Shown here one piece after another: positions 1 to 49,339 of a stretch of 64,000 nucleotides of DNA (its first letter is position 1; the number at the start of each line of letters is the position of its first letter). A program made the position numbers and the translations under genes. The stretch covers positions 1 to 64,000 of the forward strand of contig JYFJ02000643.1 of assembly GCA_000934665.2 (NCBI GenBank), in the 5' to 3' direction. Under the pieces are notes generated by a model. That model had not been told where the DNA came from. It searched no databases and was given only the letters and a program-made list of their open reading frames with translations. This DNA is from Catajapyx aquilonaris. Its lineage: Eukaryota.

Positions 1-524
1 GTAATGGTACACTTCGCGTGTGTGAGACTGTGGGGACCGACAAATGTCCCCACAATTGGAACTGGTCCCCACAGCTACAGTAAAACCACAGACTTCCATA
101 GGGTTCAATAGGCTACTTCGAATCTTACTTTGTAAACCCCATGGTGACCCAGTGTTAGTAAGTGGAGTTGTTCCCACTGTAGGTTCCCTCTGTGGCTCAC
201 CTTGCATCATAATCGCACCCCTGTGCACCCTGCCACTGACAAGTTGTCGAACCTATACACAAGAATGGAAACCAGTTTAATTTTGAATCATTCACTACTG
301 TAAGAAAGCATCTCAAGAAGAGTGTAGCGATAAGTCATAACTACTACTTCAACAAAGGAGGAGGGCACTCTAGATGAAAGTCTGGAGTGCAAACTTTGTC
401 CCTGGCATTACCTCTAATCCCTCTGGGATGCTGCTGGCCTTTGGGCTAGCAGACATATTCCTGGAATTCTCCCCTCCGCTGTGCCAGCAACGTGGGCCGC
501 CCGGCTCTCCGGCCCCTGCGCCGG

Positions 525-600
525 GCCTATTGCCTATTGTGTGCCTATTGTCGCCTTATGCGCCTATTGTTGCCTATTGTTGCCTTATGTGCCTATTGCC
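525..600. repeat. Short tandem repeat of ~7-11 bp units (GCCTATTGT-like) in a GC-rich patch
   Basis: gcctatt/gcctattgt/gccttatg units repeated about 8 times. Confidence 0.8.
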
Positions 601-1184
601 GATCGCACTTGAGCGCAGCCCGCCATATGCCGCCATCGCCGTACGTCCCGCAGGCCGGCAGCGCCGCCAGGCGGCTGGCCGGGAACTTCACGGCTGTCGA
701 CAGAAAGGATACCGGCTCCCAGGGCACGCATTACATGAGACTGGCGGGTATGCAGCGCTCTTGAGGGACACTCGGAGGGTAAAGCTGCTCCCTGGTACCT
801 GGTGGTCGGAGGGCGAACTAACTGCGTTTACAACCGATGATTGCCATACCCTGAGCCATTGCAATTTTTGGCAGTTGTGTCGTTATTTCCAGTTGTTTCC
901 GAGCTCATACAGGAGAGGACAAGGGAGAGCACCAGTCGAGACCCCAAGCACTACAGCTGTGGTGAAAGGTCAGACCAAAGAGAGAAAGACATCGTGCGAG
1001 TCTTCTCCTGGTCTGCCCGACTGACCACCGCTGTTGCTGCTTGGGTTTGCCTCGGTTTGAAAGGGATCGTGTCCACACGCGTTGCTTATTACGTGGTAAG
1101 TGATGAGCTGTTCAGTTACACTGGTCTTTTATTGAAGTGTCCGTATACTTCATTTTCACTTGCATTTACGATTTACCTAGAACT

Positions 1185-2267
1185 ATGGAAGGTGCTGCCG
1201 GTGGGGAATCCTCTGTGGCATGCAGGTATGTGCAGAGGCAGGAAATACACCTTGTTTGGACCATCGAACACTTCCAACAGAAGATGTTGATTGAGCAGCA
1301 GGACAACAATGAGGAGGAAATGATTCTGACAGCCCCAGTTCAACAAGTCGCCTTTGAAACTCATGCAGTCTCATGCCAATTGAAAGTTCGTTTCCCTTGC
1401 ATTAAAAATGGTGCATATCTAGAGAGACACAGCCTCTCCCTGCATCTTGATGTCGACCTTCCTAGCGAAGACCCAGACCTGATTACTGACGGGGGCCCAG
1501 TGACAATGAGAAGTGCAACTGGCCACGACTACACTTGCAAAGCTTCCCGCCTTTGGAACATAGTAGAGGGATTTACAGAGTTTATCTCCATGAATGAATT
1601 TATGTCACGGAGGGATGACCTGCTTCCAAATGGTACAATGACCATCATCTGCCAAGGGGAATTTGTATTGGATCTTGGCTGTCTCAAAATCCCTGAACCA
1701 AATTTCATGAGCAATATTGAAGGAATATTGCGGTCTGGTATGGGTAGTGATGCTGTTCTGGTCACTCAAGAGAAGGAGTTCCTGGTGCACAGGGTGGTCC
1801 TTCTGGCCCGAAGCCCTGTGTTTGCAGCCATGTTCAACCACGACACCACAGAGAAGAGGACAGGAAGGGTCGTCATTGAAGACATAGATCCTCCAGTTGT
1901 GGAAGCCATGATACGGTTCATCTACATAGACAAGAAACCTCCTAACCTGCCAGAGATAGCGGCCGATCTGATGGTGGCTGCGAGTAAGTACAACATAGTG
2001 AGACTCCAGAACATGTGCGAGCACCACCTGGCCAACACCCTTGACTTGGATGACGTCATGCCTCTCCTGGATTTAGCAATCCACCACAGTTGCCCCAAAC
2101 TGAAAGGGGCTTGCTCCACGTTTGCTGTGCTCAACTACCCTGCACTGAGGAAGTCTCCTTACTGGGAAAGGACCATGTTCCAGGAGTATCCGGATGCTTT
2201 GTATGAGGTGTTTGAGTGCATGCATGGAAAGGACAAAATTGACACTCATGCAGATAGAAACAGGTGA
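1185..2267 (+). CDS. SPOP/Roadkill-like MATH-BTB(-BACK) protein, unit 1; single coding exon, can stop at 2267 or splice at 2264 into unit 2
   Basis: MATH-like N-terminus (WTIEHF...DDLLPNGTMTIIC) and BTB motifs (SDAVLV, VHRVVLLARSPVFAAMF, IEDIDPPVVEAMIRFIY). 5'UTR intron 1096-1180 (GTAAGT...TAG); the spliced junction makes an in-frame TGA just before ATG 1185, fixing the start. Confidence 0.92.
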   Translation: MEGAAGGESSVACRYVQRQEIHLVWTIEHFQQKMLIEQQDNNEEEMILTAPVQQVAFETHAVSCQLKVRFPCIKNGAYLERHSLSLHLDVDLPSEDPDLITDGGPVTMRSATGHDYTCKASRLWNIVEGFTEFISMNEFMSRRDDLLPNGTMTIICQGEFVLDLGCLKIPEPNFMSNIEGILRSGMGSDAVLVTQEKEFLVHRVVLLARSPVFAAMFNHDTTEKRTGRVVIEDIDPPVVEAMIRFIYIDKKPPNLPEIAADLMVAASKYNIVRLQNMCEHHLANTLDLDDVMPLLDLAIHHSCPKLKGACSTFAVLNYPALRKSPYWERTMFQEYPDALYEVFECMHGKDKIDTHADRNR

Positions 2268-2574
2268 GTAGAGGTGCTAGGCAAAGGTGGGGTAAATACT
2301 GGGTAAATATACTGGAGGTAAGAAGAAGAAGTGATGACAAAGGTTATTCACAATGGCACTAATCTATCTATTATATTCACTCATTTGGCACAACTGATCC
2401 AGGCCAATACTCGATGGCTGCGAAAGGTCACTGCTACAAGCCTGAGACTTGCAGATTAGAACTAGGTTGCATTTGGGCCCCTCTTTGTACCCAAGCTGAT
2501 CCACTCCGCTAGGAAAAATATAAACTTTCACATCCAAATGTTGTGATACTTGAGCAGCTGGATTAAAATTTAAG

Positions 2575-3653
2575 GGGTCGAATTTTCGTCTTTTCGCTAG
2601 TAGTGCCTGTTCAGTACTGATTAGTTAGTAACTGCGTAGGCGCTTTTAGCGGTACTGTTTAAAGTGGAATTTTCGTCGTTCTATTAGCCGCTTTTTACAA
2701 ACCAGTACTGTATAGCCTAATCAGTGCTTAATAGTGACAATTGACAGTTGGCGCATGCACATAACAAGCCTTCCTGGCTTCCTGTATAAACAAGTGAAGG
2801 GAGAAGGCGATGATGGACAGTAATGCTACATTGATGAGTAGCCTATGGAGCAGGGTCGCGGGGCCGACGTGGGGCAGTATATCTGAGTCGTGATCTGGGT
2901 CATTTAATATTCCTTGTGCTGTGGGATTTTAGCCACGCAAGTCGGTATAATAGAGGCGGAAGATGTCGTGTGATCCCATGGTGCAGGATGTAAAAGATCG
3001 ACTGCTGACTTCACCAGTACAGGGTGTTCCAAGTTCGTGAGTCGTTTTATTTATAACTAATATCGCCCGATGTAGTTATCTTTTGTAGCTTGTTGCTCCC
3101 TGTTGCTGTTTCCCCAAATTTACTTCCAGGTATGGCAAACTTCTGGGGAGAGGTGATCCTTACAGGTATATTTAAGCAACAGCTATTTAAGTAACTGTTA
3201 TTTTTGCTCTCCGATGAGGGACCATCTGGGACGAGAGGTGCAACAAGCTACAAAAAATAACTACTTCAGGCGACATTAGTGATAAATAAAACAACCAACA
3301 AACCCTGTAGGCCTACTGTAATTATGCAGAGTGGCATAAAAAAGTGCTTGGATGCTGTATCACCCTGTATCTCATGAAGGGATCCAGAAGGGGGAGGTAG
3401 CGCCTCTGCACCCGTAAAACGCGTCGAACTCGACCTACAAGTCAAACAGTCGTCACCGTGTAGGCCATTTCTCATGTGACGAGGTGACTTAGAGACACCC
3501 TAAGGTGTCATTAACCTCACTTCTATTAACTACACAGTTCCATGTTTAGTAGTGCCTAATCAGAAGCACGGAAATTCCATCCGTCCTAAGATAATGGTCA
3601 GAACCTCTAAACAGTGACTAATAGTGGCTAATAGTAAGACGAAAATTCGGCCC
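2575..3653. mobile_element. Degenerate non-autonomous TIR element (PIF/Harbinger-like ends) with a nested MITE
   Basis: Left gggtcgaattttcgtctt (~2575) matches the reverse complement of aagacgaaaattcggccc (~3636-3653); no clean TSD seen. Confidence 0.5.
3020..3307. mobile_element. Tc1/mariner-type MITE, family A copy 1
   Basis: TA|CAGGGT...ACCCTG|TA, internal inverted repeat (gtagcttgttgc / gcaacaagctac); related copy at 48411-48642. Confidence 0.8.
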
Positions 3654-3962
3654 AAGGTTTCCAATAACATAAGCTTGCGCTCACTGTCATCTCTGCAAAT
3701 GAATTTGGCAGAAAAACACAAGAATACAAACAGGTTTGGACATGAACAAAGTTGTTGCAAAAACACATGCTGATCTATCTGAAAATAACTTTTACAGTAT
3801 AATAATGTAAAAATACTCTATGCTCTCACACGCAGGTCTTAATATGTACCAGTAAATGTGTAATCCAAAATATTTGTCTGCCTAATGTGGCTGTTTGTTG
3901 GTATCAAGCTGCTAATTTTTGGGAGTACTTTTGCATGGGTACAATTAAAAGTTATCAAAATG

Positions 3963-4526
3963 CAGTTGACTCCAGATATAACAGCCTGGGTTATAACATA
4001 CGCTCGGTTATGACGGACAAGAAAGGCCGATCCCTGCAAACTTCCATAAGGCCCCGTGTATTTTTACTCCTGATATAATGACAGACTCATTGTCACCTCA
4101 CCTGAGCTATAACTTACCATTTTAAGGCCCCCTTGAAGGGAAAATATGTTGTTTGTGATTATTCAAATACCTTTCCCACACACAGGAAAGCAGAGAATAC
4201 GGGAGGAGGGTGATTTAATAGCATCTGTGACTGATCTAAGATACTCAAAATCATTTTTTTTTGGTACATTTGGCAACAAGAGATGGCAGAAGAATATTAA
4301 TTACTTATTTTTTAGGTCCTGTCTGATTTACGGAAGAGCTAATATTGCATTCTTGTGGATCGTTTTATTAATAAAGCAGTAGTGTGCATTTTAAGCATGT
4401 GGAAAACACAAAACTTTGCATATTCTTTGCGAAAGTGGTCATTTGGTTATAATAGACCTCGGTTATATTATTATAACATACTTTTTTCCAAGTTCCCTTG
4501 AAGTCTGCTATGTCCGGAGTCCACTG
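3963..4526. mobile_element. pogo/Tigger-like MITE
   Basis: Left cagttgactccagatataacag vs reverse complement of right end cagtggactccggacatagcag; TA on the right flank, TG on the left. Confidence 0.65.
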
Positions 4527-5042
4527 TATTATCTGCTAGAGTACATGGACCCACTCATTACAAAGCCTGGAAAGTGGTTCTGTCACTGACCTGAGATGCC
4601 AATTGCTCCAATGGGCCATTGCTAATCGACAAATAGACTTACTTTGCAGTTTACAGAATTGATAATTTGGTTTGGCATAATGTTAGTTGATAATAATTCA
4701 CTGTAACTGTAAGTAACTGTAACAGTAGCTGCTAAGAAATAAGCAACTTTGTGCCAACAATAAGTCATGCCACTTCAACAATTATTTTGGATCACTGTGT
4801 ATACATGCTCATGGATGGTGAAGCAGAGATAAGTGTCAGGAGCTAATTTTGTCTCAGAAATTCAACCAACTTACACGGAGATGTTATTGTAAAGAAAATT
4901 AATCCATCATTGGTACATTCCGATCAGTGCGCCATCAAGGTGCCATCCAAAGTCAAATTGGAAGTTACTTCTTCGAAATGTCTGCACTTTTGCATAATGT
5001 TATCTGTCGCGAGCTATTCAATTAAGTTAAATTAGCAAAATC

Positions 5043-5395
5043 GGGGGAGGCCTGGTGGTGGAGATGGTAACGTCTCGGCGTGCTGTGTGAAAGGTCCCGG
5101 GTTCGTCCCCGCCCGGGAGTTCCCTTTCACCTGCATCAGCGAGGGTCTCTGACAACCTAGCCACCAGGGAGATTGCACATGACCCACACAATTATAGTGT
5201 CAACGCACTTGCACCTGTGTCTCCTCCCCACAAAAATTGTATCTCCGGCTTCTATCCCCACCTAACGTCCTTTCTCCCCTCCACCCGTGACTGAAGATAA
5301 AAGTGAATAAATTTTGTAAGAAAATATGGTGGTGCACCATCCCCCTAAGAGAGCCGAAGGCTCTAGCATGGTGTCGCTGAAAAAACTTTTAAAAA
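5043..5395 (+). mobile_element. tRNA-derived SINE-like element
   Basis: tRNA-like head with A-box-like tggtggagatgg and B-box-like gggttcgtccc; 3' stem-loop (caccat...agagcc-gaa-ggctct...atggtg) followed by an A-rich tail. Confidence 0.65.
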
Positions 5396-5430
5396 TGGGA
5401 AATCAGGCTTACTTTTATTTTTATTTTTAG

Positions 5431-6529
5431 AACAAAGGAAGTTACTGTGGAGGAGGATTCTTTGATGCTATATGAGCAGCGAGAGCAATTCCAGTTTGTG
5501 TGGACAATTGAAGACTTTGAAGAGAAGATGTCGAATGATGGGAAGGACAACAAGGAGCGGGAAAAGATCGTGACATCCCCAGCTCACCCAGTCGCCTTTG
5601 GGAGACATACAATAAGATGTCACTTGAAAGCTCAGATTCCATACCTCAAAAGTGATGTCTATCAGAAGCATGAACGCTTTTGCCTGTACCTTTACTACGA
5701 CCCTGATGACCATGGCCATGATGTGAATTCTCACTCCTACTCAATGACAATCAAGAGTGCAAGCGGTCCTGACTACACCGAGCATTTGCCTCCTGGTAAA
5801 GCTGTTTATTCTTCAGGTTACTTTCCACCATCATCATCAAGGAGATATTTCAAAACTATTTCCATGAATAAATTGAGGTCAAAGAGGGATGATTTGCTTC
5901 CAAGCAACACAATGACCATTATCTGCCAAGGGGAATTAGGCATGGATCTCAGAGAGTTCAAAGTCCATGAGCCTAATTTAATGTGCAATTTTGAAGGAAT
6001 ATTGCAGTCTGGTATGGGTAGCGATGCTGTTCTGGTATCTCAAGGGAAGGAGTTCCAGGTGCACAGGGTGGTCCTCCAGGCCCGAAGCCCTGTGTTTGAA
6101 ACCATGTTCAACCACGACACCACAGAGAAGACGACAGGAAGGGTCATCATTGAAGACATAGATCCGCCAGTTGTGGAAGCCATGATACGCTTCATCTACA
6201 CAGACGAGGAACCACCCAACATGCCAGAGATAGCCCCCGATCTGATGGTGGCTGCGGGAAGGTATGGCCTGGAGAGACTCCAGAAGATGTGTGAGGAAGA
6301 ATTGGCCAGTACCCTCAATGTGGATAATGTCATGCCTCGCCTGAGTTTATCAATCCGCCACAGCCGCCCTCGACTGAAAAGAGCCTGCTGCATCTTCACC
6401 CAGCTAAATTCCAACGAAATGAGGAAGGCTTCCTACTGGGGAAGGAACTTGGTCGAAGAGTTTCCAGAAACTGTGAAGGAGCTGTTAGACTGCCTGAAGA
6501 TTAGGCCTAATATTTATAATTCCAACTGA
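5431..6529 (+). CDS. SPOP-like MATH-BTB unit 2; probably the second coding exon of a fused gene, join(1185..2263,5431..6529), 725 aa
   Basis: Same MATH and BTB motifs; strong acceptor ttttatttttatttttag at 5430; the position matching unit 1's ATG reads AAG; phase matches the donor at 2264. Confidence 0.88.
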
Positions 6530-7244
6530 AGTTAAATTTTGATCCATTTTATATGTTGTGTTTCACAGAACTTTGTGCAATATAACCTTGGATGGAAAAA
6601 AAGTGATTTTTAAGACTTTTCATTCATGTTCCTCTGCTTGTTCAAAAAGGAAATCATAGCTTGGATTGATATGGTTTTCTTACGTGCTCCTCAATATGCG
6701 ATTTTTCATGGGAATTTAAATCAAGAGTTTACACAGGTGAAGATGATATGTACTTGGTAATAAAATGCCCTTTCTGATTAGCTGTTTTCATGCATGTCTG
6801 CGATCATTTCAATCAGCTGTCCGAGACCATTTTCATTCGACCACTTTCATTTTTCGTCTGTTCGAGTCTGATGGTAATTTTAGATTATTATCACTGAACA
6901 GCGTAACACTTATGCTGATCAATAATAATAATAATCACTTACGTTAGTGATGATCAACTGCTCTGGAACAATGAATGCATACGTTATTTCGGGGTCCGCG
7001 CAATTCTACTTCCAATTGAATTATTGCTTTAAAATGGCTTGAATTAAATTCGTTGAAATAATTCGTTAATTGCTGCAGTACATGAAATTAACAAGGAATC
7101 TTCCAACTTTTTAAGCTGAAATCTTATGTCAATGGTACACGAAGAACAATTTTTTGTAATTTAAACTGCCATCTCTGGCATCATTGCAGTAGGCCTGGAT
7201 GTTAAAAAAAAAAAACCTAAACAATGATTTTCTGGCCTAAATAA

Positions 7245-7395
7245 ATTATCCCAAAAACACTTCCTACGGAATTTTTTAAAAAAAGTAACAGCTAGGTGAC
7301 GGATAGAAATTACTTAAACAAGACGGGGCCGCGTAAGAGCTACACCATAAGGGTAAATGTAACCCAGAGGTCTTACTGCTCATTTTACGAAATAA
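7245..7395. mobile_element. Diverged solo arm of the foldback element at 31924-33094
   Basis: Shares attatc(c/a)caaaaac...cctacggaatt...cggatagaaat...gcgtaaga...taaatgtaacccagag with 31924-32080. Confidence 0.75.
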
Positions 7396-7804
7396 AATAA
7401 ATAGATGGTGTATGCAAATGTCGCTGCATCTAATGCATCTATATTATGTAACAAATTTAATCATTATATATGCTCATCTCAACCATACAGCCAATCAATC
7501 AACAATCACCAGCTTCTCAACCATTCAATTAACTTTTCTACAAACAAGCTCATGAAACAATGGATCGAACACTGGGAAATAGATGTAAGTCTATCACGTT
7601 CAAAAAGATTGTCGTCACTGTTTATTTGGGTATTAGGGTCTTTGTTTCTAAGCAACAGAACAATCACGATGGAAAACTGAAGAGAAGATGAACCAACACA
7701 CTTTTCAAGATTAAAGTATGAAAATTACCAGTTACAATAATTTACAGAGTGCCTGACTGCCTGCACTTGAATACAGCTTTAGCATAACTGTAACTATACA
7801 GCAT

Positions 7805-9030
7805 ATGAGCTCAGAGGTAAGTGCCATAACCGTAGTCTAAAAATACCCGTCTAATTTATTGGGACATGCCAAATACTTACGAAATATTGAGATTCTCTAA
7901 TCATCACTATTCATGAGTGCCCATCTTCACGAATTATTTAGACGGAATTTGGTCAGCACTGCAGAGGCATCATGACCAGCAGCAAGTTATATTCCTCCAC
8001 CTACATTAAGATAAAGCATTTTCACTTCGAGTGGACAATCAATGACTTCAGCATCCTGAAGCAAACAGGGTATCTGAATCACTTGAGGTCTGAACCATTT
8101 CGCATGAAAATCGGCGATGACAATACCACTTGGAGGATCGAGATTTGCTATCCTGGTTGGTCAGTAAACTACAGTGCCCCTGATCACCTTTCGTTCTATT
8201 TGAAGTACTACCCGTCGGAAACAGGCAAGAAACGATACATCATCAAGAATGACTATTACATATTGAAAAGCCAAGTAGGAAACGACTGCGCTAAGCATTC
8301 GACAAAGGCCACCATATATGAACGACACGGATTGGGATACCCCAAGTTCATCACGATGGAAAAACTGGAGTCGGAAAGGAGTGACTTTTTACCCAACGAC
8401 ACCATGACTCTCATCTGCAAAGGAGACATCATGACGGGGGTCGAAACTGGCCAGGCCATACCAACAGTGGCCGTAAAGGAGTCCAGGTTATCATTGGATT
8501 ATCAGCACTTGTTGGATTGTGGCGAAGGAAAGGACGCAACGTTGATTGCTGAAGGAAAGGAGGTACCGGTTCACAGGCTGGTTCTTCAAGCTCGCAGCCC
8601 GGTGTTTGAAGCCATGTTCACTCACGACACACTGGAGAAACAGGCAGGCAAAGTTGTCCTAAAAGACGTGGATCCTCCAGTTCTGGAAGCGATGGTGTGG
8701 TACATCTACACGGACCGGGAACCTCCGAACCTCCCAGAAGTAGCCACAGAACTGATGGTGGCAGCGGACAAGTACGACCTGACCAGACTCAAGACCATGT
8801 GCGAGAGACACCTGGCCGGTACCCTGAACGTGGACAACGTGATGTCTCGACTGAACTCGGCCATTTTGCACAACTGCCCCAAACTGATGGAAGTTTGCCT
8901 GATATTCGCGAAGCATCACTTGGAGAAACTGCGCAGGAGCCCCTCTTGGCCGAAAATATTTTTATTAGAAAGCTCTGAAGCCATGCTTGCCCTGTTGAAG
9001 CCAGAGTGCGGCACCACTGTAGCAACGTAA
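7805..9030 (+). CDS. SPOP-like MATH-BTB gene 3; likely join(7805..7816,7942..9030), main ORF 7972-9030
   Basis: MATH (FEWTINDFS, LSFYL, GLGYPKFI, FLPNDTMTLIC) and BTB (VHRLVLQARSPVFEAMF, AADKYDL). ATG AGC TCA GAG|GTAAGT at 7805-7822 is phase 0 and joins acceptor 7941 in frame. Confidence 0.9.
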
Positions 9031-9109
9031 ACCAATATACTGAATTTTTTGTGTCACATTAAAGAAACAAATTACTGTGTGCAAAGTAATTTTATAAACT
9101 CATTGGACT

Positions 9110-9856
9110 GTGTATTTAATTACTATGTCGCCTACCCTGTCGCAAGAAGTCATAAACTGCGTGACGGTACAGTACAGGAAAGTCTATCAGAAAGCTAACG
9201 TGACGGCCAGGGAGTTTCTGCACCCATCGACCATAAATCAAATAGTGACAGCTCAAGATATGTACACTTTCTGCCAGTCCGCTTCTATAGCATCATTCAG
9301 GTTCTTTTTGTAAGTTACAAGGAAATTCAGGCAGCGACTACAAAATTGAAGCAAAGGATGTCTTCAGCAGCTATCACAATCAGGGGCACGCTGCGATTTC
9401 ATAGATTCAGGCCAATCTCTGAAACGCAAATGACAGTGCACTTCCTGTCATCCAGCCAGGACTGTACAGGTGTGCAAGACTTCAATGGAGACATCAGAAG
9501 GGGGAACAGAAGAAGAACAGTGTCGTGTTGGTGATTTTGTCGCGTATGTTGTGACTGACCTTATTTGGGTTGAGCAGATCTCGGAAATATCTCCAGAGTT
9601 TGAGGACTACAACATCACCTTTATGCACAAGGAAGGTTCTAAATACCATTGTCCTCAGAAGGAGGATAGGTGTTGGGTGTCTGCCCATGACATTTTTTGC
9701 CCTGTCCAGTGCAAGTACAACACAATGACTGGAAACTACAATTTGCCTGCTGCTGATGCAGCAAAAATTGAACATTTCCAGAGGAGCCTTAATGCTGAAC
9801 CGTATAGTTGCTATACTGTTGAAGCCAAAGCAGTAGGCACTGGAACTGAAATCTAA
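9110..9856 (+). pseudogene. Degenerate C-terminal fragment of a DNA-transposon transposase (Sola2-like, tentative)
   Basis: Three broken frames giving NQIVTAQDMYTFC...FF, TIRGTLRFHRFRPIS and VGDFVAYV...YNITFM...PQKEDRCWV, a motif order I recognise from arthropod transposase C-termini; superfamily is inference. Confidence 0.5.
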
Positions 9857-10899
9857 TCGGAAACGCCCAGTGACATTAGAGTTCTGATGGAAGAGGTGAG
9901 AGAATATTGAGGGAGGGTGTAGAAAATATGGAAGCTGCCAGGCTAACTTTTATTAAATTGGCTTGCTAATACATACAGTAGTTGTAGACTTGTAGATCAT
10001 CTACACGGTGTATACAAATCTCCACACTTTCAGAACCACCAGCAGTCAACAAGACATTTGTTTGCATAAACTGGTGACAATTAGTTTAGACTAATAATAC
10101 CGATTTTAGTTCATTAGGGAAGGAAGGTGATGTCATATTAACTCGACACCAGGCATGTTTCCTGCTTGCCTTACTCCACAGTTCTACGAGGCATACTGTA
10201 AAATGTTATGTACTAGGATCATCAGAATTTCACTACTTTTCCAAGGAGATTATTTTATGGTTAGATTACCTAGAATTTTCAAAATGGGAGCTAACCATTT
10301 CGCATTTGATACCATTTCACATAATTATCATCCTCAAAATTCCTCGTCACATTACATTCACACCCTTTTTACTGTGAAAATTCATATTAATCATATTGAA
10401 AAAAAAACTGTCACAGTGAGTCAAGAAATATATTAGCCTGATTAAGAGACCAACAATTCTTATTTCTAATAAAATCACTATTTTTCATCATAACAGAGGA
10501 TTCTGTCACATTCAATTACATCCTTTATATTATGCAGCTATAAGAATGCATATATTATAAATAATATCAACAGTGAAGTATCCCTTATTTTAAAAATTGT
10601 CGTCATCATTTTCATACGCGCAAAATATATGCCTCGCAAAATCCTAATCTAAATTTTAACTGCACAACAATAATTCTTTATATTTGAGGGCAAGAACTAC
10701 ATGGCATTTCATTATCATGAAAATATCAATAACATCATCAAACTCTCAATTATTGCAACTTTATTGATATGAACCGTGCTTACTTTCTTGGCTATTTTTA
10801 CTACTCATTAACCCTTAAGACAGTAATACCATGGATCTGAGCAAAGTATCATGTGGTCTTTTGTGACCTCAGGTGGTATTTTAACTATAGTTGACCTCC

Positions 10900-11579: not shown

Positions 11580-12430
11580 CTACTCCCCCGTGTGAATCCT
11601 CATATGCCTATTCAAATTCACTGACTGACTAAACCTTTTCTTGCAAATTGAGCAACTGAATGGCTTCTCCCCCGTGTGAATCCTCATATGCCTATTCAAA
11701 TTCACTGACTGACTAAACCTTTTCTTGCAAATTGAGCAACTGAATGGCTTCTCCCCCGTGTGAATCCTCATATGCCTATTCAAATTCACTGACTGACTAA
11801 ACCTTTTCTTGCAAATTGAGCAACTGAATGGCTTCTCCCCTGTGTGGGTCCTCGTGTGTGCATTCAATTGTTGTAACGTAGTAAACCTTTTCTTGCAGAT
11901 TGAGCAACTGAATGGCTTCTCCCCTGTGTGGGTCCTCATATGCCTATTCAAAGGTGCTGACTGACTAAACTTTCTCTTGCAAATTGAGCAACTGAATGGC
12001 TTCTCCCCTGTGTGGGTCCTCATATGTGTATTCAAATTTCTAAGGGAAGGGAATTTCTTCTTGCGGATCTGACAAACCTTCCCCTCCAAGTGCTTCCTTC
12101 TCTGCAAGTCTTGCTGGTTTCCATTCTTCACATTTTCTTGAGCATCATTTACCTAAAAAATGGGTATGAGCTCATCACATTTTTGAAATAAATGCAGGTG
12201 TAGGAACACGAAGAGTTCATGTTGGAACTCTCTAGGCCTGCCTTGCAATACCAATACCCCTGAATGCGTACAATTGACACCCTTGTTTTTAATATTCAAA
12301 GATGGAAAAATCCTCATAGTACCTCCCTCAGAGCACTTCTTTTGTGTATACATGCTCACACTCTTTGTTTCGCGTAGGCCTATTCATTCTCGCTAGGTAG
12401 CCAGTTGCCAAAATTTGGCACAAATTGTTA

Positions 12431-31923: not shown

Positions 31924-33094
31924 ATTATCACAAAAACTAATTCCCTACGGAATTGTAAAAAAAAGGAAAGTAAGATCCAAGTAACGGATAGAAATGACTG
32001 AAACAAGACTGGGCTGCGTAAGATCTTCAACCTTATGGATAAATGTAACCCAGAGATCTTACTTCCGCATTTTACACAATAATATATTAGATTTGTATCA
32101 TGGTGATGATCAAAGCGTCTTTGTCCATCAAGGTATAGTTGTGCAATTTGGGATTATTTAATGCTTATAATAATAATATAACATAATAATAAAATAATAA
32201 TATGATAATAAGAATAAACGATAAAAATAAAAAAATGTTATTAATTGGTTCATCGATTAGCTGAGTGGCTGGAAGGTTAAATGTTTCACATTATAATAAT
32301 TCACATATAATAATATAATATATAATATTATATAATATATGTAATATAATATGTAATATATAACATATAATAATGTAATTATATATTATATGTAATGTAT
32401 ATATGTAATGTATATATGTAATGTATATATATTATATGTAATGTATATATGTAATGTATATATATTATATGTAATTATGTAATATATAACATAATATAAT
32501 ATGTAATATATAACATAATATAATATGTAATATATAACATAATATAATATGTAATATATAACATATAATAATGTAATTATATATTATATGTAATGTATAT
32601 ATGTAATGTATATATATTATATGTAATTATGTAATATATAACATAATATAATATGTAATATATAACATAATATAATATGTAATATATAACATAATATAAT
32701 ATGTAATACAATATAATACACAATATTATTTTATTATAATAATATATAATATAATATAAATAAAATTATTATTTTAATAAGGATAAAGGATAAATATAAT
32801 CCTTAAATTAATTAATTAATTTGTTCATCGATTTACTGAGTAGCTTGAATGTTTAATGGTCCACAGATTGGCTTATTAGCATTAGGATGGCTGATGGACA
32901 AAGACGCTTTGATCATCAGCATGATACAAATCTAATTATTGTGTAAAATGCGGAAGTAAGATCTCTGGGTTACATTTATCCCTAAGGTTGAAGACCTTAC
33001 GCAGCCCAGTCTTGTTTCAGTCATTTCTATCCGTTACTTGGATCTTACTTTCCTTTTTTTTACAATTCCGTAGGGAATTAGTTTTTGTGATAAT
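31924..33094. mobile_element. Foldback element with ~205-bp inverted arms around an AT-rich satellite core
   Basis: 31924-32130 is the near-perfect reverse complement of ~32892-33094. Confidence 0.88.
32305..32765. repeat. AT-rich compound minisatellite (atataatatgtaatatataacata and tatgtaatgtata units)
   Basis: Directly visible tandem units. Confidence 0.95.
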
Positions 33095-34691
33095 AAAATT
33101 AAGTAGTGTCAAAACCCGGTATATATTTCTTATACGTGAGATATAAATTTTTGTAAAGTGACATCTTTGTGCTATACAATATACACACTTAAAATAAATA
33201 TTTTCTCGAAGAAGCCATTTTGAAAATTTAATAGTTATTTTTTGTATAACAAAGTAGCATGAGTTCGATTATAAAATTATATCAAAATTCGGTATATATT
33301 TGTATTCAGTGAGATACGATTTTTTTCACGGGGGTGATTTTTGTTTCTATGCAACAACATGCACATTTCAAAAATTAATATATGGAAAACGCAATTTTTA
33401 ATGTGCAATATTCTTTTATATTTTATAAAGGAAAGACCGGTTCTGTCATAAAATAATATAAAAACATGGTATAGATTCTTGATGATGCAAATTTATGAAA
33501 AGTGGTATTTTTGCTTTCGTTTAGTGTCTTTCAACATTCTTCCACCAGTTAATTGACACCAGTTAATTTTATAACATGTCCGTCCTTGTAAAATAAAAAA
33601 TAAAGATAAAAATATTAAAAATTGCTTTTTTGAGAAAATAATTTTTGAAATATGCATGTTTTCGCATGTTGCCATATTTTCACCTCGCATATCTCAACTA
33701 CAGGAGGAGCTAACGAAGGTTTTATTTTATAACCTGGAGGGGGTCACCGAGTATATCACAAAATATAATCAGCACAACCGTCACGTTTACCATGACGGCG
33801 TAATAAATTGCGAAATATGCGCATTTTGACCAAAATATGCAAGACTGGTGATTTTTTTTGCAGGTGACTGTACCATTAAATGAGGTAAATTTATGCATTA
33901 AATGACAGTGTGTTATTCCAAACGCATGAGTTTAAAATTTCATGTTGGTTCTCAGAACAGTTCCCGAGATATACTCATTGAAAGCAATGGAAAAAGCGGG
34001 AAAAAGTGCGTCTTCGCGTGATTGTGATTTTGGTACCCCTTCAAAGAAATATTAATATCTCGATAACTAAATTTAATCTGGTAAAACTGATAGCTCCATG
34101 AGAGTTCAATTGGACGTGGGTTTCACAGATTTTTTTTTTCAAAAAAAAATGATGACTATGACCTGACACCTTGTTTTATTCACTGGCTGATCTGAAATGG
34201 AACCACCCCATAATTGTTCTACTACTTGATGACTTGATGACTTTGGGCTGTTTGTTACAAACTGACATTTTGGAGTTGCCATGACTGCATTTTCTATTTC
34301 AAGAAGCTCGTTCTCTGGTCAAGAAACTAAACACTGAAAATATGCCCCTTTCCTCTGCTGGAATATATTAATCCAGGATTTGTCACTGACAAAATAATTG
34401 AAATTAATTTTTCATGACTGGCTTTCTTCACTTATCGAAACTGTACTTGGCGATATGCATAGATTGGTCCCGGCAGATCACATCTCTCATCAGATTTGCT
34501 ATCAATCAAACTAATCACCCTCATTTAAAAATTATACCTTTGGATGACTTACAAATAGACTATCTCTTCAAAATATATACGCCTAAAAAAGCTTTTCAGT
34601 CCACACAATAGCTTTTTGCGATTGTCTCGTACAGTTCGTGTGTCGAGGGCTTTCTAAAGTCAAAGAGAGGGTCCACTGAATTGATCACACC

Positions 34692-47600: not shown

Positions 47601-49339
47601 TAATTGTTTTGCTAAACATTGGAATACTGTATTAGGAAATATTGCACAATGGTCCATATTTTTCAAATTTTGACAACAATAATGTAAGATTCTAGTGCAA
47701 TCCGGTCATAATATCACAGCTGTCTTTACATACCGGTACATTATTACATGTCCAGCACATTCCTGATCGACTGGACCCACAATTTCCTTATGACAAAAAT
47801 CCCTGCCCCCAAGGCCAGCATCACAAATCCAGACGTCTCATATAAATTCCTTCCCTTTGACAATAACAGGGCCACGACACAACATCCATGAGCATGAGCT
47901 GGTGCCTCTATCTATTGGGATGCAACCCCGAGCATCAGGTACTTATCGAATCGATTGAAATACATGTGTACCATTGTGAGCGAGACTCGTTTTTCTCTCG
48001 ATATAAAAAAAGGCCAAGGTGCAAGAAGAATTGGACTCCATATTTGGAGATTCGGCCAGACCTGCGACCTCATCCGACCTGGCAGAGATGAAGTACCTGG
48101 AAATGTGCATAAAAGAAGGGCTTAGGTTGTATCCAATAGTGCCGTTCGTGGCTCGACATCTCACTGAAGAGCTGGAACTGGGTAAAGAACCGGTCTAAAT
48201 CCTCTTATGTACTTCAAAGAAGCAGTGAAATCTGTGTGGGTTACAGCAAGACCTTTAGCACCATTCAATCATTTTGATTGTAACTAATCGTAACTTACAG
48301 CTTTGTAAGCGAAAAGAAATCGAAATTTGGGAAGAGAATTAGTAGATGGCGCACACTGCTTCCTTTCGAAATATTCTAGCGGCACGACATGACGTAAGCC
48401 TTGTAATATACAGGATGTTCCAAGTTCGTGGGGCCTTTTCCCTTTTATAGTAGTTATATAGTTATAGAAAATTTAGCTCAAAGCTGTTATTTTTTATGTA
48501 GCTTGTTGTGCCCCTAACTACATTAGACCACCTGATAGTACTGAGGCACTTGGATCGGGGCACAACAAGCTACACAAAAATAACTACTTCGGACAATATC
48601 AGTGATAACAATAAACTACCCACACGAACTTATAACACCCTGTAGAGTGACTTTCATAGTATTTTTTTACCACGTTAACTAGATGGATTCACGATACCAG
48701 AAGACGTGACTGTTGTGGTGGAATCACTCCTACTTCATCGTGATCCAAAAACTTTTCCTGATCCGGAAGTGTTCAATCCAGAGCGATTCTTACCAAACGA
48801 AGCCCGTCATCCCTTTGCATACATCCCATTTTCAGCCGGACCACGCAACTGCATCGGTAAGTTTTCCCTTGAAAAATTTCGTGCCATTGCTTGGTTCCAA
48901 AAGCAGAATTAAACTCTAAATATGCTGGGGAAGGCCCAGAGGCTCTTTGAAATTACTAGGCAAACATTACGCATCCCTCCCCCTGAGCGTCTCTCTTTGA
49001 AACTACGCTACACTGCGAACTGCCGTCATATTCAGCCTGCATTCCTTAACTCTAGTTTCCGGATTCAGAATGGACGATATAACCCTCGCGAATTGATGGG
49101 CTTGGCATCCGGGAATTTGTGTACGTGCCACTCGACTGCACCGCTTGAATGCTTCCTGTTTTCCAGGCCAGAAGTTCGCAATGATGGAGGAGAAAGTGGT
49201 GCTGTCCACGTTCCTCAGAAACTATCGGATTAGATCTTTGCAGAAGCCTAAAGAACTGATTCTGGTCAGTGATTTGGTCCTACGCTCCAAGAATGGCATC
49301 GATGTGACAATAGAGGCCAGAAATGTAAAGGATATGTAA
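44628..49339 (+). CDS. Cytochrome P450, CYP4 clan, 506 aa, 12 exons: 44628-44796, 44871-44980, 45040-45130, 45539-45724, 46149-46218, 46310-46436, 47262-47334, 47428-47537, 47870-47938, 48013-48181, 48683-48856, 49167-49339
   Basis: [29 protein letters not shown]4 signature [22 protein letters not shown] (ExxR), PERF, heme loop [11 protein letters not shown]; exons sum to 1521 nt in frame. Confidence 0.95.
47391..47412. repeat. (CT)n microsatellite forming the polypyrimidine tract of CYP intron 7
   Basis: CT run ending 15 nt before the acceptor at 47427. Confidence 0.9.
48411..48642. mobile_element. Tc1/mariner-type MITE, family A copy 2, in CYP intron 10
   Basis: TA|CAGGATGTTCCAAGTTCGTG...CACGAACTTATAACACCCTG|TA; homologous to 3020-3307. 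Confidence 0.85.

Follow-up and report, generated by a model that had tools for sequence, protein, structure and literature searches.

SPOP-type adaptors act as dimers and higher oligomers, and the choice of partner sets which substrates share one Cul3 scaffold. Here we analysed a group of SPOP-like genes of Catajapyx aquilonaris on contig JYFJ02000643.1 (GenBank assembly GCA_000934665.2), within a stretch of 64,000 nucleotides (positions 1 to 64,000, forward strand) that we refer to as the window. Its first 9 kb carry three paralogous MATH-BTB-BACK genes on the + strand, named U1, U2 and U3, with one coding exon each. Like SPOP, SPOPL, Roadkill (HIB) and the plant BPM proteins, all of them Cul3 adaptors, the three units match the MATH-BTB-BACK build over its full length. 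Compared to SPOP, however, identity is only about 25% for U1, Pfam misses MATH in U1 and U2, and U1 to U3 belong to a tandem set that is fast-evolving and lineage-specific, has one coding exon per unit and possibly two modules per chain. The stop codon of U1 is embedded in a splice donor and the region before U2 reads as an exon start. From these signals we lean, by a modest degree, towards the view that U1 and U2 are joined in one fused mRNA and constitute one transcription unit.

The closest described relatives of such a product are proteins in which MATH and BTB both occur twice. In the account given in PMC4923191, rice Os2M2B1 (LOC_Os11g41260.1, 655 aa) is a predicted two-MATH, two-BTB protein. 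Proteins of this kind have the same (MATH-BTB-BACK)x2 architecture and a similar length as the U1-U2 join, and they are known as gene models. The double MATH-BTB architecture is already predicted elsewhere, and hence is of a known kind. [quoted passage not shown] The section at hand of PMC4450057 describes same-strand neighbours less than 30 kb apart, with the join made onto the second exon of the downstream gene while its first exon is skipped. By their sequence U1 and U2 appear similar, as they lie on the same (+) strand, are 3,167 nt apart and show strong in-frame signals for a join. They differ from conjoined genes in being paralogues of one family, and the donor overlaps the stop instead of lying in the penultimate exon. 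Moreover, U2 is apparently without a start codon of its own, and its link to U1 may be a fixed requirement instead of an occasional event. Chains with two BTB domains are also described for RhoBTB2 (PMC3946479) and for BTB-ankyrin proteins (PMC1257465), and the latter text states that both BTB domains of S. pombe Btb3p are required for Cul3 binding. All three resemble the proposed U1-U2 chain in carrying two BTBs per polypeptide, which there work with Cul3; unlike that chain, they are without MATH, and their BTBs are old and divergent rather than parts of a recent whole-adaptor duplicate.

U1 extends from ATG 1185 to a TGA at 2265-2267 and encodes 360 aa. The TGA is part of a donor, CAG/GTGAGT, at 2261-2269 on the + strand: AGGTGAGT begins at 2262, C precedes it at 2261, and the G of the GT lies at 2264. 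This donor fits the consensus MAG/GTRAGT at 9 of 9 positions. The coding part of exon U1 (1185-2263) measures 1079 nt and closes in phase 2. At the other side of the interval, a T-rich polypyrimidine tract with an acceptor (5409-5430, + strand, 16 pyrimidines in 19 positions) stands before exon U2, whose coding part covers 5431-6529. When the start regions are aligned, U1 reads tag/a act ATG gaa and U2 reads tag/a aca AAG gaa, with the AAG of U2 (5435-5437) at the position of the U1 ATG. The frame of U2 is open over 5393-6529 and comprises 354 aa when counted from its first ATG, at 5465; the stretch 5432-5464 is open as well and in frame with this ATG and with the stop at 6527-6529. Joining 2263 to 5431 combines 1079 and 1096 nt into 725 codons, or 2178 nt including the stop, with an Arg codon at the join. 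The first-pass annotation had claimed a U1 stop within a consensus 5' splice site, a strong acceptor at 5430, a U2 start homologous to that of U1 with its ATG lost, and an in-frame union of the phase-2 donor with this acceptor to give 725 aa. The sequence agrees with the coordinates of the first, pyrimidine content and rank with the second, the alignment with the third and the open conceptual join with the fourth.

How exceptional these sites are can be judged from their ranks within positions 1-10200. Among 572 GT sites of the + strand, scored with a simple log-odds matrix of crude base frequencies that serves for ranking only, the donor at 2264 comes first, followed by the U3 leader donor in second and the U1 leader donor in sixth place. 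When 140 acceptor-like sites are ordered by their pyrimidine content, the acceptor at 5430 again leads, with the leader acceptors of U1 and U3 in 12th and 13th place. The motif AGGTRAGT occurs four times on the + strand of the 64 kb, and the shorter GGTRAGT is present 12 times on the + strand of the window and three times on the - strand. Its only occurrences in the first 10 kb are the U1 leader donor, the stop-embedded donor and the U3 leader donor. From the base frequencies of the window we calculate that a TGA stop would fall within a perfect 9-mer donor with a chance of approximately 3.4e-4. Judged by the sequence, the donor-over-stop arrangement is real and not a chance pattern.

That U1 and U2 are two SPOP-like units, as had been proposed, is confirmed by the profile match to SPOP, by structure models and by Foldseek. 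The three-unit profile matches human SPOP over residues 21-349 with an E-value of 1.4e-46. Pfam finds the BTB domain in U1 (7.1e-23), U2 (3.4e-24) and U3 (4.8e-23), as well as MATH_2 in U3 (2.6e-15). No MATH domain is found by Pfam in U1 or U2 at E<=0.01, and the BACK_BPM_SPOP scores of 22.7, 18.6 and 20.7 bits for U1, U2 and U3 lie under the curated cut-off of 27.4. The MATH fold of U1 and U2 is therefore assigned by the structure models and the SPOP matches only. The AlphaFold2 (AF2) model of U1, based on a 34-row alignment, has a predicted local distance difference test (pLDDT) score of 87.2 and comprises an N-terminal β-sandwich, a BTB domain and C-terminal helices. The best PDB matches of this model in Foldseek are full-length SPOP chains (E 4.5e-24, about 354 columns, about 25% identity). 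U2 is modeled with the same fold at a pLDDT of 84.9. In both models the β-sandwich, corresponding to MATH, occupies about residues 15-170. The helices of U1 reach to about residue 351 and can be aligned with SPOP up to its residue 349, and residues 357-360 have pLDDT values below 50; in U2 the same applies to residues 1-10, which precede ATG 5465, and the first MATH strand is formed by residues 15-26. On these predictions, the SPOP-like MATH-BTB-BACK build of each of U1, U2 and U3 is clear.

A complex prediction for U1 and U2 gave a score of 0.65, compared to 0.00 for the best control, with the contacts located between the two BTB domains. The score mark applied to such predictions is attained by 51 of 78 solved complexes and, among 108 mismatched pairs, by 2. 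At least 64% of the contacts are shared between the runs, and the pLDDT of the partner is at least 72. Because SPOP BTB dimers are solved structures, the score may reflect likeness only. The interface model is compatible with tethered and free pairs alike and cannot tell them apart. Of the intramolecular BTB-BTB interface that the first-pass annotation had proposed to look for by structure prediction, the interface between U1 and U2 is thus predicted, while its tethering is not distinguished. The same holds for the pseudo-heterodimer suggested there, which is compatible with the predicted BTB-BTB contacts; these contacts, however, resemble the solved SPOP dimers and are silent on tethering.

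In a phylogenetic tree U1 and U2 are sisters (Shimodaira-Hasegawa-like approximate likelihood ratio test, SH-aLRT, 99), and U3 is sister to both (99), and we therefore regard the three as a local tandem expansion. Nei-Gojobori counts for U1 against U2 give 0.54 synonymous (dS) and 0.34 nonsynonymous (dN) substitutions per site overall. The respective values are 0.74 and 0.45 in the MATH region and 0.27 and 0.13 in the BTB domain, and the BTB halves (1583-2064 and 5857-6338) are 85-86% identical at the DNA level. This contrast may stem either from gene conversion in the BTB half or from faster divergence of MATH. The MATH-BTB family is known for fast evolution, which fits an overall dN/dS of about 0.6. 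Could U2 be a silent or decaying copy that has lost its start and its promoter, with the splice match being inconsequential? The missing ATG, the want of a recognisable leader and the dN/dS of about 0.6 would be in keeping with decay. Nevertheless, the 365-codon frame of U2 is intact at a dS of 0.54, the family-invariant BTB residues are kept and the model reaches a pLDDT of 84.9, and we consider decay very improbable. Because the frame is still open at the divergence between U1 and U2, the sequence indicates that U2 is under selection, and so expressed in some way.

Proteins comparable to a fused U1-U2 chain are predicted in other species. An exhaustive profile search returned 24,727 relatives at E<=0.001, of which the best 150 were examined together with cluster members. 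At least two BTB-containing stretches are present in 56 of these proteins, in a ranking that favours double proteins since they score twice. The two-module models listed include 13 from Cordylochernes scorpioides (668-725 aa), one each from Planococcus citri (XP_065209892.1), Phymastichus coffea (XP_058788785.1) and Copidosoma floridanum (XP_023246686.1), and plant models from wheat and Aegilops (709-723 aa), barley, Leersia and Urochloa. Eight double proteins were inspected with Pfam: all eight have two BTB stretches, four have two MATH_2 domains (P0029, P0085, P0023 and P0028 of our list), and four have two BACK_BPM_SPOP domains (P0029, P0190, P0028 and P0055). The search for a MATH-BTB-MATH-BTB architecture suggested earlier has thus been answered, as gene models of this type are found in plants, insects and a pseudoscorpion. 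The premise that SPOP-family adaptors carry a single MATH and a single BTB domain is incomplete, given that proteins with two of each are predicted in several lineages. The two-module proteins share only about 30% identity with U1 and U2. A word-index protein search with U2 among proteins of near length gave 17 distant matches, the best of them 35-41% identical. The corresponding search with U1 among longer proteins gave none at E<=0.001 in 1,883 candidates, which is a limit of its sensitivity according to the exhaustive search.

The phylogeny of the modules is informative for several of these proteins. Among 11 two-module proteins of Cordylochernes scorpioides, the 11 first modules group together in a clade of their own (SH-aLRT 95), and a further clade (95) unites second modules from 9 of the 11; the pair has therefore multiplied as a unit. 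In five lineages of this species there is no Met in the stretch before the second MATH domain, over the 40 to 90 residues seen per lineage, which in two of the five extend through to the domain. The sequences suggest that the two-module MATH-BTB family of Cordylochernes (P0021-P0030 and P0168-P0174) is a real, multiplying gene. Within their proteins, the two modules of Planococcus and those of Copidosoma are each other's sisters, as are U1 and U2, pointing to repeated local origins. In the literature searched, we found no paper linking MATH-BTB genes to read-through or conjoined transcripts, and no bench study of two-module MATH-BTB proteins or of MATH-BTB neighbours linked through a donor that holds the stop. 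The top match of the exhaustive search, P0018, is a spider model of repeated BTB segments and was judged to be no parallel. As a separate observation, a conserved group of proteins of about 766 aa (P0026 and P0180-P0184, from Schistocerca and others) matches the three-unit profile in two BTB-containing stretches. In a relative of this group, P0027 (777 aa), Pfam shows two BTB domains interleaved with ankyrin repeats, which is another double-BTB architecture.

The segment between the two units (2264-5430, + strand) represents, by its sequence signals, a putative intron of 3,167 nt, or an intergenic spacer if the units are separate. It contains no open reading frame (ORF) of at least 100 aa and no homology to the flanks of U1 or U3, and positions 2268-5430 give no Rfam match at E<=0.1. 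An element of about 1.1 kb (2575-3655) resembles a miniature inverted-repeat transposable element (MITE). It is defined by the inverted repeats I2 (2667-2695/3620-3648) and I1 (3033-3099/3237-3303), the latter forming a nested hairpin at 3033-3303 with 67-nt arms, and a partial related copy at 48530-48644 shows 73-82% identity. A second block, at 5044-5315 on the + strand, ends in a T run just upstream of a TTT/GTAAGA at 5316 and was read by eye as similar to a short interspersed nuclear element (SINE). This reading is unsupported, as ARAGORN finds no tRNA in 1-10000, Rfam gives no match and the window holds no second copy. A fold test of the block was no better than shuffles (z -0.25).

Within this interval we also considered whether the U1 donor, while real, is joined to a nearer acceptor, with U2 being a separate gene. 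The acceptor-like site at 4315 has 13 pyrimidines in 19 positions and opens a largely hydrophobic frame of 22 codons in phase with the U1 donor. The frame closes at a stop at 4380, and an AATAAA at 4370 lies within 55 nt of the site, so that U1 would gain a 22-residue tail and an end of its own. This site is, however, the best of ten tried, and such candidates are common in any AT-rich 3 kb. The region is also without homology to the 3' flanks of U2 or U3, and a join to 4315 would leave both the lost ATG of U2 and its in-frame register unexplained. We thus regard it as improbable.

The start of U2 can be compared with those of its two paralogues. U1 is preceded by a putative non-coding leader exon (900-1095, + strand, with an approximate 5' end), which lies in the sole GC- and CpG-rich stretch upstream of U1 and ends at the donor GTG/GTAAGT with its G at 1096; the GC content is 0.60 and the observed/expected CpG ratio 0.94 at 601-900. 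The leader intron of U1 (1096-1180, + strand) is 85 nt long, and its acceptor ends 4 nt before the ATG. U3 (ATG 7972 to the stop at 9028-9030, + strand, 352 aa), identified by its ORF and by Pfam, has a leader intron of 125 nt (7817-7941, + strand, donor GAG/GTAAGT) that ends 30 nt before its own ATG, and serves as an internal control for an unlinked unit. U3 itself, these two leader introns, the leader exon of U1 and the repeats in the interval were absent from the first-pass annotation. U2 is not preceded by a consensus leader donor like those of U1 and U3, which stand 85 and 125 nt before the respective acceptors. The only candidate, TTT/GTAAGA at 5316, ranks 117th among the 572 GT sites and adjoins the repeat-like block. 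No copy of the leader or promoter DNA of U1 or U3 lies upstream of U2. A comparison of leader exons, leader introns and 3' flanks among U1, U2 and U3 gave no score above shuffles. Since the flanks of U1 and U3 are not alike either, the missing likeness of a U2 leader is weak evidence. In the GC and CpG profile neither U2 nor U3 shows a clear promoter island, and the observed/expected CpG ratio climbs to 0.83 at 4801-5100. Around ATG 5465, position -3 is T and position +4 is C, compared to A at -3 for the ATGs of U1 and U3.

Within 1 kb after the U1 stop there is no AATAAA, the first being found at 3285. U2 is followed by an AATAAA 230 nt after its stop (6759-6764, + strand), the first one there and a candidate poly(A) signal from the motif scan. 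U2 ends without a terminal donor, and the next unit, U3, retains its ATG and its own leader intron. At both junctions, therefore, the presence or absence of a donor at the end of one unit goes together with the absence or presence of an ATG in the next.

The most serious competitor to a fused mRNA is that U1 and U2 are separate genes. U1 would be polyadenylated in the spacer, and U2 would be transcribed from its own promoter and leader within 2268-5430, with splicing at acceptor 5430 and translation starting at ATG 5465. The donor at the U1 stop would then be unused, or would give rise to occasional read-through chimeras of no consequence. Several observations speak for such an arrangement or weigh against the fused gene. 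Translation of U2 from ATG 5465 would drop only 11 disordered residues, with the first strand beginning three residues on and the MATH domain complete; an independent U2 is viable because its MATH domain is intact from this codon. The acceptor at 5430 has its homologues in the leader acceptors of U1 and U3 and needs no new explanation; it ranks first in large part through a simple T-rich repeat, and the frequencies of the donor matrix are crude. The GTAAGA lies 115 nt upstream of the U2 acceptor, a spacing like that of the U1 and U3 leader introns, and a U1 mRNA of its own could terminate by way of an ATTAAA at 2562. The evident introns of these genes measure 85 and 125 nt, compared to the 3.2 kb proposed here. 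As the leaders of U1 and U3 cannot be aligned with each other, failure to recognise one for U2 says little, and the CpG ratio of 0.83 at 4801-5100 would be in line with a start region of its own. Between U1 and U2 the dN/dS is high, at about 0.6 overall and 0.47 even in the BTB domain, and leaves room for relaxed constraint. Furthermore, the best relatives of U1 and U2 in the database are 30-40% identical, with no close paralogue or orthologue among them. In other proteomes, a double-length model can result from the merging of neighbours, and the Planococcus citri model keeps the Met of its second module and has an odd linker, as in a merged or read-through model.

Separate genes would, however, require a series of coincidences, namely that the best donor falls on the stop (approximately 3.4e-4), that the ATG is lost, that the frame is kept and that the best acceptor in 10 kb stands before U2. 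In addition, the leader donor candidate of U2 is poor (117th of 572), and the sequence before it is repeat-like rather than exonic. We therefore give two separate genes a real but clearly minor chance. The anatomy of the sequence fits a single two-module gene better than expected, and this reading is plausible.

For the fused gene, we propose the following model. A tandem duplication of a SPOP-like MATH-BTB-BACK gene would have produced the sister units U1 and U2. Together they would now form one transcription unit composed of a promoter and a leader exon (to 1095), the 85-nt intron, exon U1 (1181-2263, + strand), the intron 2264-5430 and exon U2, which begins at 5431 and would end with the poly(A) signal near 6759. 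The 3,167-nt intron would have picked up repeats. Splicing at CAG/GTGAGT would take out the TGA of U1, and the first base of exon U2 would complete an Arg codon. Reading would then pass through 11 codons, the former start region of U2, into the body of U2, yielding a (MATH-BTB-BACK)x2 protein of 725 aa. The modules would be joined by a polar linker of approximately 24 residues, which is disordered in both models. The two BTB domains could pair within the chain, and a single Cul3 scaffold could meet two different MATH domains. With the intron kept, translation would stop at the TGA and give the plain 360-aa U1. Since exon U1 has both an acceptor and a donor, its skipping would yield U2 alone from ATG 5465, a product that the first-pass annotation had not considered. 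From the arrangement of the locus we infer the use and the proportion of the splice, the intramolecular pairing and the binding of Cul3 and of substrates, and a regulated splice-or-stop switch would be pure conjecture. A comparable choice is made in the immunoglobulin mu heavy chain, where splicing from a donor close to a coding exon's end rivals use of that end itself, giving the secreted or the membrane form as a short or a long protein. In contrast to immunoglobulin mu, the long form of U1-U2 would add a whole second copy of the protein, and any regulation here is conjectural.

If the fused chain is made, two diverged copies hard-wired in one polypeptide would fix the composition and the stoichiometry of a heterodimer, and the chain could couple two substrate specificities. 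The stop within the donor would let the same locus also yield a plain monomer. We further hypothesize that a single unit may give three adaptors (U1, U2 and the tethered U1-U2) by RNA processing, and that such units have arisen repeatedly in this genome and in other arthropods, as a general route from tandem duplicates of an obligate-dimer adaptor to heterodimers made of a single chain, in which a 1:1 stoichiometry is fixed and the two substrate-binding domains differ. This wider proposal is doubtful at present. If real and recurrent, it would illustrate how simply duplication in tandem can lead a fast-evolving ubiquitin-ligase family to a new domain architecture. In addition, the double-length MATH-BTB gene models of plants and arthropods would deserve treatment as possible real proteins and not as annotation merges. 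If the splice is unused, the locus would be an ordinary lineage-specific MATH-BTB cluster.

Elsewhere in the window, four tandem copies of a multi-exon gene occupy positions 20336-42113 on the + strand. The largest tested exon, which belongs to the first copy, matches the Pfam family Lig_chan (ligand-gated ion channel) with 3.1e-10. By its sequence the region looks like an ionotropic-receptor-like array, in which the fourth copy appears disrupted at approximately 39.3-41.5 kb. On the - strand, an exon at 11580-12152 encodes C2H2 zinc fingers, of which at least five are nearly identical and arranged in tandem (zf-C2H2, 5.5e-39). Finally, a 2-kb stretch at 32001-34000 has a GC content of 0.25, compared to a mean of about 0.41 for the window.

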